From: Tenericutes bacterium ADurb.Bin087
Lineage (GTDB): Bacteria > Bacillota_I > Bacilli_A > RFN20 > CAG-826
Length of the DNA: 64,000 nt
Assembly (NCBI GenBank): GCA_002070905.1
Contig: MWEF01000004.1
Span: 8,190-72,189, forward strand
Direction of reading: 5' to 3'
Shown piece by piece: positions 2,135-12,966 of the stretch. The first letter of the stretch is position 1. Each line of letters starts with the position of its first letter. A program made the position numbers and the translations under genes. Under the pieces are notes generated by a model. It did no database searches and was not told where the DNA came from. It was given only the letters and a program-made list of their open reading frames with translations.

Positions 2135-3250
2135 TTAAGTAATCACAAATGGATTACTAATTGAATTTTTAATAATTACATCAAGAACTTCCTTTTCGGC
2201 AGCTGTAATAATTGGACTTCCCTCTTCACCAACATAAGCAAAATGTGAAGGTTCATACCCAGAAATTTTTGTTAATAACCCAAGGGAAACAGCATATCGG
2301 CCAATTTGTAAATCTAAGTGTCGCCCATCTCTAGTAAAATCATTATCCGTTACTATTGATGATTTTCTTGCATTCTGTATTATCGTACCACTCGGAACAA
2401 TAAAACTGATTGAATTCGAATTTGTCATAAGTTCACTTGAAGCGCTAGCAATTGCTTCATACATAGCCTCTTGGCTATTGTTAAAACGTTCATAATATTC
2501 ATTATTGATTGTAATATCATCTTGATAAGCCCATACTTGATGCCACGCTATAGCCGGTAATTTCCTATTATTTTGCCCTAAATAATTTTCAATAGCACTA
2601 CAGAAGTTATTTAAAATATCGTAATCAACTTGATGATGAGCCTGTGTCACATTTTCTTGTAATAGAATTAAGTCCCATTGATTTTGGAATAATAATGCTT
2701 GCTTAAGTGATTTGTTTTCAATATATATCCAGTCCATATTATCAAAATCATATTCCATAAGTTTATAAAGTTTCTTATCTTCAAAAAGATAACGATTATG
2801 TAACTCTAACGTTGCATCTTCAAGCTGTATTGAATAAATATTATATTCAAAATCTTCATTACTTTTAGCAGCAATTAAATTCGAATAATAAATTAAATCT
2901 TCGCTATATGTATCGCCAATTGATAACAGCTTACATGTTTTGCGAAAATTTATCGAAATCGGTACTTCAACAAATACTTCTTCAGCAATGTTTAATGTAA
3001 CTTTTATACTCGTTTGACCTATTTTAGAAGTATCAAATTTCGTTGCATCAATCGTATATTGTTCACGTGTTAGAAGACTATCTTTATATTTAACAACAAA
3101 ATCATTTTCATTAAATGCATCATATAATTGGAAGGTCTTTTCGGTCGTTACAGTTAAGTATTTAGTTTCGAAATCTGGTTCTTTTTGTTTACAGCTAACC
3201 AGCGAAAAAATTAATGCCACTAATACTAAACTAAATTGCGGTCTTTTCAT
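2135..3250 (-). CDS. Lipoprotein with an Ig-like N-domain and a DUF4886 (SGNH-like) putative carbohydrate esterase domain
   Basis: Lipobox LVSC in MKRPQFSLVLVALIFSLVSCKQ. KLLSIGDTYSEDLIYY resembles the DUF4886 start (xLxIGNSFSxD). RDGRHLDLQIGRYAVSLGLL resembles its end (DGxHLxxxGRY). The start codon overlaps the upstream stop (TAATG). Confidence 0.55.
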   Translation of the reverse strand: MKRPQFSLVLVALIFSLVSCKQKEPDFETKYLTVTTEKTFQLYDAFNENDFVVKYKDSLLTREQYTIDATKFDTSKIGQTSIKVTLNIAEEVFVEVPISINFRKTCKLLSIGDTYSEDLIYYSNLIAAKSNEDFEYNIYSIQLEDATLELHNRYLFEDKKLYKLMEYDFDNMDWIYIENKSLKQALLFQNQWDLILLQENVTQAHHQVDYDILNNFCSAIENYLGQNNRKLPAIAWHQVWAYQDDITINNEYYERFNNSQEAMYEAIASASSELMTNSNSISFIVPSGTIIQNARKSSIVTDNDFTRDGRHLDLQIGRYAVSLGLLTKISGYEPSHFAYVGEEGSPIITAAEKEVLDVIIKNSISNPFVIT

Positions 3251-11496: not shown

Positions 11497-12966
11497 TTAA
11501 AGGCTCAATTTCTGATTTACTATTGTCCGTACTTCTTCAAGGTACTGATCAACGGTTATTCTTTCGTCTGGATTATCCGCAAATAATTTTTCAGCTTTAA
11601 GATCATAACCTTCTTGCTTCCAAAGTTGGTTACGATGATAACTCCATAAACCGATTGGTTGGAATTCTGCTGCTGCTAAGAAACAAGCAAAATTAGCGGG
11701 CATATTATTTGATTCTCTTTCAATGTAGTCAGGTTGTTCGGCTAATTCAGGATAAACTGGGATTTGAAATCCTGTTGCGCTTAAAAGTTCCTGTCCTTCT
11801 TTTGAAGCAATATATTCAATTAATTTCCACGCTGCTTCTTTATATTGTGAACCTTTAAACATTGAGTAACCAACTGACCCACTCCACGCATTCTTTTCAG
11901 GTGAAACACTATTAGCAGGAACTGGACAAACGTCCCAATCAAAATTCAATTTACGAAATTGTGCTACTTTACTTTTTAAACCAATAAAACACGCTAACAT
12001 TTGGTTTGAGAATAATTTGGACGCATCACTACCCGCACTCCATGATGCTGGTGGTTGTACTTGACAGAACTCATAACCTTCAACGTTGACGTAAGAGCGT
12101 TGCATATACGAAAAGCCTGCTTTAAGCCCAGCAATTGTTTCTGGGTCGGTCGGGAATGATGTGCGATTTTCATTCAAAAAATCACCGCCTGATGACCATA
12201 CAAGCCCTTCTGTAGAAAGTCCGCCAACCCCATACATTGTAATTTGTCCTTTATTATTGACTTGCTTTAATTTAGACCACATTTCAAAAGCATCTTCTAT
12301 GTTCATAATTTCCGTGTTGCTTGGATAATTAATTCCTGCTTTTCTAAACGCTGCTTTATTGTAATACATCACCATTGGACCAATGTCTTTAGGTAACGCT
12401 ATTGTTGTACCAGAATGAGCGCATCGCCCTAAACTAAAATCATACTTATAACGAACAACCGCGGATTCATACATTTCATCAGTAAGGACAAGTTCGCTAT
12501 TTTCAATATACGGATCTAAATCTTCACAAACTTGCAAGGGCGCCCACGGCATAACGTCGCCATCAGGCATCAGAAAGACATCAGCGACATCACTTCCTGT
12601 CAGTCTTGTCGAATATGACCTTTCATAGTCCGATAAAATTGTTAGCGACACATTAATGTTTGGATATCGTATTTTAAATCCCTTTAGCATCGTATTAATG
12701 ACATTCATTTCGACCGCTTGACCATCTCCGTCCCAGTGCACCATGCTGATTGTACATGGAACCCCATTATACTTATTAGCAGGCAAGGCAAAAATATCAT
12801 CATATTTGGTCATTATTTGGGTAATATCATCGGCAGTAACTCCGTCGTCTTCATTATTTTGAACTCCAAATTGAGAATTAATAATTTTGCATGATGGCAA
12901 AAGTAAAGCGAAAGCCGCAACAACAAATAAAGACAATTTTCTCCGTATTTTCAAATGTGTTTTCAT
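11497..12966 (-). CDS. Extracellular sugar-binding lipoprotein of the ABC transporter
   Basis: Lipobox LLLPSC in MKTHLKIRRKLSLFVVAAFALLLPSCKI. Its ~490-aa size and its position as first gene before two CUT1 permeases fit family-1 solute-binding proteins. Confidence 0.85.
   Translation of the reverse strand: MKTHLKIRRKLSLFVVAAFALLLPSCKIINSQFGVQNNEDDGVTADDITQIMTKYDDIFALPANKYNGVPCTISMVHWDGDGQAVEMNVINTMLKGFKIRYPNINVSLTILSDYERSYSTRLTGSDVADVFLMPDGDVMPWAPLQVCEDLDPYIENSELVLTDEMYESAVVRYKYDFSLGRCAHSGTTIALPKDIGPMVMYYNKAAFRKAGINYPSNTEIMNIEDAFEMWSKLKQVNNKGQITMYGVGGLSTEGLVWSSGGDFLNENRTSFPTDPETIAGLKAGFSYMQRSYVNVEGYEFCQVQPPASWSAGSDASKLFSNQMLACFIGLKSKVAQFRKLNFDWDVCPVPANSVSPEKNAWSGSVGYSMFKGSQYKEAAWKLIEYIASKEGQELLSATGFQIPVYPELAEQPDYIERESNNMPANFACFLAAAEFQPIGLWSYHRNQLWKQEGYDLKAEKLFADNPDERITVDQYLEEVRTIVNQKLSL

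Follow-up and report, generated by a model that had tools for sequence, protein, structure and literature searches.

A probable Gram-positive-type polysaccharide-utilisation locus with an AbnE-like importer and tethered surface proteins of uncharacterised families in Tenericutes bacterium ADurb.Bin087

The arabinan system of Geobacillus stearothermophilus and Bacillus subtilis consists of an AbnEFJ or AraNPQ importer, the intracellular GH51 enzyme AbfA, an MsmX-type ATPase and the extracellular GH43 endo-arabinanase AbnA. The reference study on AbnE is reportedly that of Lansky et al. from 2020 (pmid 32067952, as listed in PMC10766802). To our knowledge, the GH43 beta-propeller is the only fold associated with endo-arabinanase activity. 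In Bacteroidota, SusE/F-like SGBPs, which are membrane-tethered multi-domain beta-sandwich proteins encoded beside the transporter, are thought to hold the polymer at the cell surface. Gram-positive loci combining a transporter with CAZymes are an established concept, the gpPUL (Sheridan et al. 2016, PMC5320581). PL27 is the family of the L-rhamnose-alpha-1,4-D-glucuronate lyase BACCELL_00875 (PDB 5nok/5no8; PMC8377490). Here we report a locus from 'Tenericutes bacterium ADurb.Bin087', placed by NCBI in the Mycoplasmatota, within a window (the whole stretch of DNA analysed) of 64,000 nucleotides. We read it, with a probability of roughly 0.55, as a polysaccharide-utilisation locus of the Gram-positive type whose target is arabinan or an arabinose-rich pectic side chain closely related to it.

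The locus resembles the Geobacillus/Bacillus arabinan system in its AbnE-like binding protein, two MalFG-type permeases and AbfA-like cytoplasmic GH51, and in having a MalK/UgpC-type ATPase encoded outside the permease operon; as in AbnEFJ/AraNPQ systems, an AbnE-homologous binding protein is genomically linked to an intracellular GH51. It resembles gpPULs (PMC5320581) in that an ABC sugar importer lies beside carbohydrate-active enzymes acting outside and inside the cell. The GH51 encoded near the transporter is one polysaccharide-degrading CAZyme, a 796-aa lipoprotein being a probable second, and the cassettes of relatives are flanked, in annotated contexts, by AraC- or HTH-type regulators.

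Seven genes on the minus strand (2135-12966) encode, in order, a binding lipoprotein (489 aa), two permeases (305 and 293 aa), the 796-aa lipoprotein, two proteins of 439 and 916 aa and a DUF4886 lipoprotein (371 aa). The six junctions measure, in operon order, +2, -11, +12 (with AGGAGG), -14, -4 (ATGA) and -1 (TAATG) nt. Gene order, strand and lengths reproduce exactly those of an initial annotation of this DNA, and all six junctions were recomputed as given there. Downstream lies an intrinsic terminator hairpin on the minus strand (2061-2086; GCGACC-AAAAAC-GGTCGC followed by TTTT), common to the operon and the convergent upstream gene. It is the top hairpin-plus-U-run on the minus strand within 2000-13100, with a stem dG of -10 kcal/mol and a z-score of -3.8 for its 90-nt context. 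Terminator-like sites in the operon interior are weak, lie within coding sequence and occur at chance level (10 against 6.9 +/- 2.7 expected). The initial annotation had likewise placed a terminator at the end of the operon and seen none inside it.

The divergent intergenic region (12967-13177, 211 bp) holds candidate promoters for this operon and for the ATPase operon, with minus-strand promoter-like sites at 13003-12975, 13012-12983 and 13045-13018. The site at 12975-13003, already noted as a promoter candidate, is indeed present (TTTACT-17-TAAAAT, with TG upstream), but such matches are no commoner than chance in this AT-rich DNA (50 found, 48.5 +/- 8.4 expected). A transcript begun there would have a leader of at most about 8 nt, lacking a Shine-Dalgarno sequence; none was seen before the binding-protein ATG (12966). 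Judged by its DNA sequence, the locus forms a single, tightly packed operon in which a CUT1 importer is combined with extracellular proteins tethered to the membrane, and a single transcript of the seven genes would start in the 211-bp divergent region and end at the hairpin at 2061-2086. This coupling, also proposed initially, is supported.

The substrate-binding lipoprotein (11497-12966, minus strand) carries a signal peptide with the lipobox LPSC, which is atypical, relatives showing LSSC, LSGC or LAGC. It matches SBP_bac_1 (5e-24) and SBP_bac_8 (4e-23) in Pfam. Among solved structures its sole strong match is AbnE (6rjy, E 9.5e-34, about 30% identity over residues 81-431), the next best standing at 2e-12. 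About 30% identity leaves the ligand specificity unfixed, and arabino-oligosaccharides are the presumed ligand. Permease 1 (10577-11494, minus strand) is MalF/UgpA-like, with a Pfam BPD_transp_1 domain and NCBIfam similarity to UgpA, GlcT and MalF; permease 2 (9706-10587, minus strand), whose gene overlaps that of permease 1 by 11 nt, is MalG/UgpE-like (BPD_transp_1, 2e-22; NCBIfam similarity to MalG, GlcU and UgpE).

Across the promoter region and just beyond the seven-gene range, a divergent gene (13178-14467, plus strand) that the initial annotation overlooked encodes a 429-aa MalK/UgpC/MsmX-type ATPase with Pfam ABC_tran, OB_MalK and TOBE_2 domains, scoring 460.6 bits against the NCBIfam UgpC subfamily cutoff of 432. 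By homology it is the likely energiser of the importer. A family-1 binding protein, two MalF/MalG-type permeases and a MalK/UgpC/MsmX-type ATPase with OB/TOBE domains together place the importer in CUT1 (TC 3.A.1.1). Next on the plus strand (14460-16408) are genes for a 306-aa polytopic membrane protein and for another MalK-like ATPase, divergent and 343 aa long, a pair that accompanies the cassette in other genomes and is one fused gene in locus L008 (19165-20667).

The cytoplasmic GH51 alpha-L-arabinofuranosidase is encoded 3.4 kb from the importer operon (16411-17910, minus strand). It scores 560 bits against NCBIfam ArfA, a signal peptide was looked for and not found, and among solved structures it matches the intracellular exo-alpha-1,5-arabinofuranosidase AbfA (PDB 1pz3, 3e-140). 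A 661-aa C-terminally anchored protein (18138-20123, plus strand), which ends in a TM helix followed by RKKKTN, is paralogous to the first two domains of the 916-aa protein, with which it shares 35% identity over 562 aa (E 1e-101). The GH51 had been taken for the sole assignable degradative enzyme nearby; this does not hold, as the same neighbourhood encodes two GH13-family proteins (94-2040 and 25202-27877) as well as a PF00756 esterase (28264-29559).

The 796-aa lipoprotein (7303-9693, minus strand; GTG start, AGGAGG 9 nt upstream, lipobox LVGC) belongs to an uncharacterised six-hairpin family and is the candidate extracellular glycan-cleaving enzyme of the locus. No match came from Pfam, even at E<=10, from NCBIfam or from PDB sequences. 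Neither these two family databases nor the source records give the family a name, and no described family specifically matching the protein was found in the literature. Its AF2 model (pLDDT 89.9, pTM 0.91) predicts an N-terminal beta-sandwich (aa 44-327; 8713-9564, minus strand) followed by an (alpha/alpha)6 barrel (aa 331-790; 7324-8703, minus strand). Invariant residues are Y112, D140, R154, Y195, P225, P290 and Y319 in the sandwich, and D480, D520, D613, D619, E621 and E748 in the barrel, the acidic residues being unchanged in sequences as low as 25% identity.

The best Foldseek match of the model, a weak one, is PL27 (5nok/5no8, E 1e-8, TM 0.36-0.42), which shares the beta-sandwich plus (alpha/alpha)6 architecture. 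The likeness is at the architecture level only, since identity is 7-8% and there is no sequence or profile match to PL27, whose substrate is arabinogalactan-protein caps as against the arabinan proposed here. The family profile gave weak, hairpin-level matches to GH76 and PL10 in the PDB, and Pec_lyase (Pfam) gave weak, partial matches in 29 of 33 family members, all of them relatives and not the window protein itself. Membership in GH127 (PF07944), suggested by precomputed Pfam tags on relatives, was considered and rejected because the matches of some relatives are partial (27-32 bits over about 130 barrel residues, profile positions around 71-205 of 376) and the window protein has none even at E<=10.

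Relatives of the 796-aa protein are fused to F5/8-type-C, Ricin-B, Laminin_G_3, SLH, a T9SS tail or GH43; from these fusions to carbohydrate-binding modules and GH43, together with the predicted fold, the lipoprotein is probably an extracellular degradative enzyme. The initial annotation had not recognised it as such. Counted at 50% identity and E<=1e-30, the family comprises 395 clusters; these roughly 400 clusters are spread over gut and digester Firmicutes and Bacteroidales. In Bacteroidales the homologue is a stand-alone gene, which makes the two contexts seen there uninformative. More tentatively, and with the odds against it, the lipoprotein may found a new GH or PL family, in which an (alpha/alpha)6 module cuts arabinan or a related pectic glycan extracellularly and replaces GH43 endo-arabinanases, alongside a new family of ConA-like glycan-binding proteins at the surface.

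The 439-aa surface protein (5997-7316, minus strand) has a single ConA-like domain, an Ig-like domain and a TM anchor at its C-terminus, and corresponds by homology (E 4e-11) to domain three and the Ig and TM region of the 916-aa protein. The latter (3250-6000, minus strand) is modelled (AF2, pLDDT 83) with three ConA-like beta-sandwich domains (aa 40-290, 296-548 and 555-741), an Ig-like domain (757-848) and, at aa 863-912, one continuous predicted helix, which starts as a hydrophobic TM segment and continues as a charged cytoplasmic tail. Both C-termini combine a hydrophobic helix with a basic tail (KKRRESK in the 439-aa protein). Neither protein has a match in Pfam (even at E<=10), NCBIfam or PDB sequences. 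Foldseek matched the 916-aa model to ConA-like C-terminal domains of GH43 beta-xylosidases, laminin G (LG) and galectin. Both proteins present a predicted concanavalin-A-like lectin fold on C-terminal membrane anchors.

The last gene (2135-3250, minus strand) encodes a DUF4886 lipoprotein of the SGNH-hydrolase superfamily (PF16227 5e-36; PDB 4i8i 1e-17; lipobox LVSC). Block I reads GDT in the window protein and L001, as against GNS in 4i8i, L004 and L043, which puts Thr at the position of the SGNH nucleophile Ser; block V, DGRH, is kept. The gene is accessory, occurring only in the closest relatives. The family is without known activity (PMC9487903), and nothing specific on its function was found in the literature.

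All predicted surface proteins examined in the first 28 kb bear either a lipobox or a C-terminal TM helix. The LPXTG sorting motif is absent from the window proteins scanned, including the five operon surface proteins, and from 41 homologues, and none is visible in the C-termini of the neighbours. In many relatives a Gly/Cys motif precedes the TM helix, at which an NCBIfam search found no known sorting domain.

The core order of binding protein, permease, permease and 796-aa homologue was found in 37 of 80 species-level loci, in genomes ranging from 25% to 56% GC, and an anchored ConA-like homologue then follows in 31 of the 37. GH51 lies within 10 kb in 16 loci, and in annotated contexts it adjoins the cassette in most Firmicutes relatives. 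Five loci (L086, L087, L089, L090, L091) have the order regulator, GH51, binding protein, permease, permease, 796-aa homologue and anchored protein, with GH51 directly upstream of the binding-protein gene and, in the annotated contexts, no GH43 in the gene cluster. In L051, from a Haloplasma contractile MAG, araB (774 bits), araD and araA (799 bits) come after the cassette; every one of them exceeds the curated cutoff of one model or more. An arabinose-containing target with GH51 finishing in the cytoplasm, as suggested initially, is thus supported by the AbnE and AbfA matches, the GH51 linkage and the Haloplasma araBDA genes.

In the mechanism we propose, the polymer would be held at the surface by the 916-aa, 439-aa and 661-aa (18138-20123) proteins, whose predicted ConA-like domains are carried by an Ig-like stalk and anchored by a membrane helix at the C-terminus. 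The 796-aa lipoprotein would cleave it extracellularly into oligosaccharides, in the role of a GH43 endo-arabinanase, and the DUF4886 SGNH-like lipoprotein might conceivably strip ester substituents. By homology, the AbnE-like lipoprotein would pass the products, presumably arabino-oligosaccharides, to the two MalFG-type permeases, with energy from the divergently encoded MalK/UgpC-type ATPase, and the AbfA-like GH51 would release L-arabinose in the cytoplasm.

The same logic could serve another substrate: a type II arabinogalactan or gum-arabic-like AGP, RG-I with its side chains, or an acetylated arabinoxylan or xyloglucan, on which the 796-aa protein would act as a PL27-like cap- or branch-removing lyase or hydrolase rather than an endo-arabinanase. 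We consider this unlikely, though it draws on several observations. PL27, with the same layout (PMC8377490), is the best structural match, and the weak Pec_lyase matches in 29 of 33 family members and the fusion of some relatives to galactose-binding F5/8-type-C domains fit such a substrate. Around the cassette, a Leloir pathway (galT-galK-galE) follows in L087, and GH2, CE2-like, SASA and DUF4886 genes surround it in L088 and L089, with several esterases in L088; the Leloir genes, GH2 and esterases hint at a more complex, acetylated substrate containing arabinose and galactose. Against it, the likeness to PL27 is architectural at 7-8% identity, the only strong solved relative of the importer binds linear arabino-oligosaccharides, GH51 is the CAZyme consistently beside the cassette in annotated contexts, and araBDA stands behind the cassette in Haloplasma.

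The initial annotation regarded the placing of tethered binding and processing proteins in a transporter operon as a special adaptation of wall-less, Mollicute-like cells and as an undescribed architecture, a reading that now appears very improbable. The filing of the host under Mycoplasmatota, the lipobox or C-terminal TM tethers lacking LPXTG and the presence of the cassette in Haloplasma and Mollicute-like gut 'Bacilli' MAGs would agree with it, but loci labelled Christensenellaceae, Oscillospiraceae, Ca. Gallimonas and other Clostridia (GC 48-56%) share the layout and the tethers, with a lipoprotein 796-aa homologue followed by a protein with a signal peptide and a C-terminal TM/KKK tail, again without LPXTG. 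Since the cassette occurs widely among ordinary, walled Firmicutes of the gut, it is not an invention of wall-less cells; the lipoprotein and C-terminal-helix tethers would be ancestral to it in Firmicutes rather than an adaptation to wall loss. Nor is the architecture undescribed, as transporter-plus-CAZyme loci are established as gpPULs (PMC5320581) and the concept equals that of the Geobacillus/Bacillus arabinan system. Least probable of all is that the 796-, 439- and 916-aa proteins are adhesins, antigens or structural proteins merely co-transcribed with a sugar importer, since, even though neither a catalytic motif nor a known family can be assigned to them, their gene order with the importer is kept from 25% to 56% GC, the 796-aa protein combines a carbohydrate-active six-hairpin architecture and invariant acidic residues with relatives fused to CBM-type modules and GH43, and the other two have a lectin-type fold.

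What is new here is that the surface proteins of the operon belong to uncharacterised families; the cassette architecture itself is of an already known kind. The membrane tethers come as part of the cassette and are not specifically informative about wall-less life, which corrects a tempting over-interpretation. Should the 796-aa family supply the extracellular enzyme, Firmicutes of the gut and of anaerobic digesters would break down pectin side chains by a widespread route that uses an enzyme family apparently missed by current CAZyme annotation, and the glycan-degrading capacity of these uncultured lineages would be underestimated. The locus offers a defined protein set comprising one enzyme candidate, one binding protein and lectin-like domains.

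Compared with the Geobacillus/Bacillus system, a GH43 endo-arabinanase is absent from the operon and from the clusters of the five annotated relatives, the operon carries in its place a six-hairpin lipoprotein of an uncharacterised family together with anchored ConA-like proteins, and identity to AbnE is only about 30%. Unlike gpPULs, the locus has no transcriptional regulator recognised beside the operon among the window ORFs scanned, and its extracellular parts fall in families not recognised as CAZymes. The 439- and 916-aa proteins would parallel SusE/F-like SGBPs by functional analogy only, without homology; their domains are ConA-like and their tether is a C-terminal TM helix, as against the lipid anchor of SGBPs. 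On present sequence comparisons the locus is best placed among Gram-positive polysaccharide-utilisation loci; its transporter and GH51 are homologous to those of the Geobacillus/Bacillus arabinan system, and an uncharacterised enzyme family occupies the position at which a GH43 endo-arabinanase would be expected.

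Seven head-to-tail open reading frames lie on the minus strand between positions 2135 and 12966 of the window, encoding, in gene order, a binding lipoprotein, two permeases, a 796-aa lipoprotein, anchored proteins of 439 and 916 aa, and a DUF4886 protein. Open reading frame calls reproduced the lengths given in the initial annotation, together with its six junctions (+2, -11, +12, -14, -4 and -1 nt) and the ATGA and TAATG overlaps. The 796-aa gene starts with GTG and has AGGAGG 9 nt 5' of it. A GC-rich hairpin followed by UUUU was located 3' of the last gene at 2061-2086, and no hairpin-plus-U-run on that strand is stronger over the entire operon; internal candidates are weak and no commoner than shuffled sequence would predict, in line with the proposed lack of an internal terminator. 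The promoter candidate at 12975-13003 does exist as a site, but comparable matches arise at chance frequency in window DNA. Within 12966-13003 the best -10-like hexamer is TAAAAT, with TG upstream, and it stops 8 nt before the ATG; its use would therefore give a near-leaderless mRNA. Because no Shine-Dalgarno sequence precedes the first operon ATG, the transcript may be nearly leaderless. From this gene arrangement we reasonably infer one transcript with translational coupling of the seven genes.

The first three genes encode a family-1 binding lipoprotein and two MalF/MalG-type permeases. The importer ATPase, which the initial annotation omitted, is encoded divergently from the operon at 13178-14467 (+), carries ABC_tran, OB_MalK and TOBE_2 domains, and scores above the NCBIfam cutoff for the UgpC subfamily. 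The suggestion that the locus handles arabinose is supported by two homologies: the one standout match of the binding protein among solved structures is the arabino-oligosaccharide-binding protein AbnE of Geobacillus stearothermophilus (E 9.5e-34, ~30% identity; next match 2e-12), and the GH51 protein at 16411-17910, which has no signal peptide, matches the intracellular exo-alpha-1,5-L-arabinofuranosidase AbfA of G. stearothermophilus (E 3e-140). The homology of transporter and GH51 and the gene linkage, like the fold assignments given below, are shown by the analysis. At 14460-16408 (+) a 306-aa polytopic membrane protein without a family match is followed by a second MalK/UgpC-like ATPase, full-length but divergent in sequence, whose score of 234 bits falls short of the cutoff. 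The two genes adjoin the cassette (binding protein, two permeases and 796-aa homologue) in many genomes, are fused to encode a single protein in one locus (L008, 19165-20667), and stand beside a GH2 gene in another (L089, 17386-19291); the pair might serve CUT1 importers in an accessory or regulatory role.

No Pfam family (even at E<=10), NCBIfam model or PDB sequence matched the 796-aa protein. Its homologues are numerous, every source name given being 'hypothetical', and an exhaustive profile search yielded 395 clusters (50% identity) at E<=1e-30 and 833 at E<=1e-10. An AlphaFold2 model from a 33-sequence alignment was confident (pLDDT 89.9, pTM 0.91) and shows a beta-sandwich domain ahead of an (alpha/alpha)6 barrel. 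Its best structural match was the PL27 L-rhamnose-alpha-1,4-glucuronate lyase, with which it shares a two-domain layout (PMC8377490), followed by the sandwich-plus-six-hairpin enzymes GH116, GH94, GH65 and GH88; all structural matches had 7-13% identity and a low TM-score. GH127 and Pec_lyase Pfam tags on relatives span only ~130 barrel residues and were taken as superfamily kinship, not membership. Six acidic residues (D480, D520, D613, D619, E621 and E748) are invariant among sequences with as little as 25% identity, and fusion partners seen in relatives are four to six F5/8-type-C domains together with SLH, Laminin_G_3, Ricin-B with a T9SS tail, and GH43. Partners of this sort usually mark a secreted catalytic module. 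The invariant residues and the fusions are signs that the 796-aa protein may be a catalytic module.

The 439-aa and 916-aa proteins match BWX74_00304 and BWX74_00303, respectively, at 100% identity; both belong to Tenericutes bacterium ADurb.Bin087, a MAG placed by NCBI in unclassified Mycoplasmatota. Neither protein had a sequence-level match in Pfam, NCBIfam or PDB, and the 439-aa protein shares homology with the C-terminal portion of the 916-aa protein. The model of the latter (pLDDT 83) has three beta-sandwich domains followed by one Ig-like domain, then a membrane helix and a charged helix on the cytoplasmic side, and Foldseek assigned the sandwiches to the fold of the concanavalin-A-like C-terminal domains of GH43 beta-xylosidases, laminin G and galectin. 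Fold and position suggest that both are surface glycan-binding proteins. A third family member of 661 aa (18138-20123, +) is a paralogue of ConA-like domains 1-2 of the 916-aa protein (35% identity, E 1e-101) and probably belongs to the same system; it is separately anchored at its C-terminus, and its gene adjoins GH51, divergently transcribed. Many anchored-protein homologues carry a Gly/Cys motif, e.g. (K)KGCGGS or SGC..C, directly before the transmembrane helix (L005, L009, L010, L013, L015, L018, L022, L025, L026, L028, L030, L031, L035, L036, L043, L044 and L048). It occurs outside the clade of the window, whose own anchored proteins do not have it, and brings to mind a signal for processing or sorting, although no known sorting domain was recognised by NCBIfam at these C-termini.

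The last gene (2135-3250) encodes a member of the SGNH-hydrolase superfamily; a solved structure exists for the DUF4886 family, whose activity is not known (PMC9487903). The protein retains the Asp-x-x-His motif, and Thr replaces the nucleophile Ser found in relatives; it may represent an esterase that has changed or lost its activity. At residues about 110-113 GDT stands in place of GNS, also in the closest relative, and the L003 homologue has GNA and has lost the His too. DUF4886 accompanies the cassette in few relatives, namely the three closest (L001, L003 and L004) and the more distant L043 and L088.

A comparative scan of one genome per species gave 80 retained loci that encode a member of the 796-aa family. 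The homologue directly follows the same binding-protein and permease homologues in 37 of the 80; an anchored-protein homologue comes next in 31 of these 37, and GH51 lies within 10 kb in 16 loci. The annotated contexts show a recurring unit of regulator, GH51, binding protein, two permeases, 796-aa homologue and anchored protein (about 940 aa), with no GH43 within the cluster. A Haloplasma contractile MAG has araB, araD and araA after the cassette, each scoring above the curated cutoff of at least one model. Carriers range from 25% to 56% GC and include Mollicute-like Bacilli MAGs, Haloplasma, and loci labelled Christensenellaceae, Oscillospiraceae, Ca. Gallimonas and other Clostridia. All these carriers have a lipobox in the 796-aa homologue, and the protein encoded 3' of it has a signal peptide, a C-terminal helix and a basic tail, never LPXTG; one family member is anchored by SLH domains instead. 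Adaptation to a wall-less cell, as originally proposed, does not hold: the same tethers occur in Clostridia-labelled cassettes, so tethering is not a response to wall loss. Lipobox and C-terminal-helix tethers are found throughout the carriers and the tethering style therefore travels with the cassette. As a 'wall-less architecture' the locus is of low interest.

Each surface protein examined in the first 28 kb has a lipobox or a C-terminal membrane helix; a motif scan found no LPXTG in the five operon surface proteins, and none was visible in the C-termini of their neighbours. Two GH13 (alpha-amylase family) proteins are encoded at 94-2040 (+) and 25202-27877 (-), one with a Ser/Pro-rich linker and C-terminal transmembrane anchor, the other a lipoprotein with a Listeria-Bacteroides repeat. 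What looks like a further surface-protein cluster occupies 20215-25067 (-), where two paralogues of 412 and 514 aa (35% mutual identity, each with a C-terminal transmembrane anchor, no family match) come after a CotH-domain lipoprotein of 641 aa. The region overall is a glycan-utilisation island, more than an arabinan locus alone. A predicted small sugar-catabolic cluster at 42293-46030 (-) encodes a class II ketose-bisphosphate aldolase, a fucose-isomerase-fold sugar isomerase with distant likeness to sulfoquinovose isomerase, and an FGGY kinase (XylB-like, below cutoff); a XerC/D-type integrase gene is next (46138-47049). The remaining window holds ordinary Firmicutes housekeeping genes (rpsB-tsf-pyrH-frr-uppS-cdsA-rseP).

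Most likely, the lectin-like anchored proteins would retain an arabinose-rich pectic polymer, the presumed substrate, at the membrane, the 796-aa lipoprotein would cut it, the AbnE-like lipoprotein and the MalFG/MalK-type importer would bring in the oligosaccharides, and cytoplasmic GH51 would free the arabinose. The main rival, which we consider less likely, keeps the same logic for a more complex arabinose/galactose-containing, possibly acetylated glycan, from which the 796-aa protein would remove caps as PL27 does; the loci of some relatives, with their Leloir genes, GH2 and esterases, point in this direction. The locus carries two protein families not recognised by Pfam, NCBIfam or PDB, and is of moderate interest in pointing to a candidate new carbohydrate-active enzyme family. 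Read as arabinan utilisation, it would work like the Geobacillus/Bacillus arabinan system, which has a GH43 endo-arabinanase whereas this locus has none; except that no linked regulator was identified, it fits the concept of a Gram-positive polysaccharide utilisation locus (PMC5320581).
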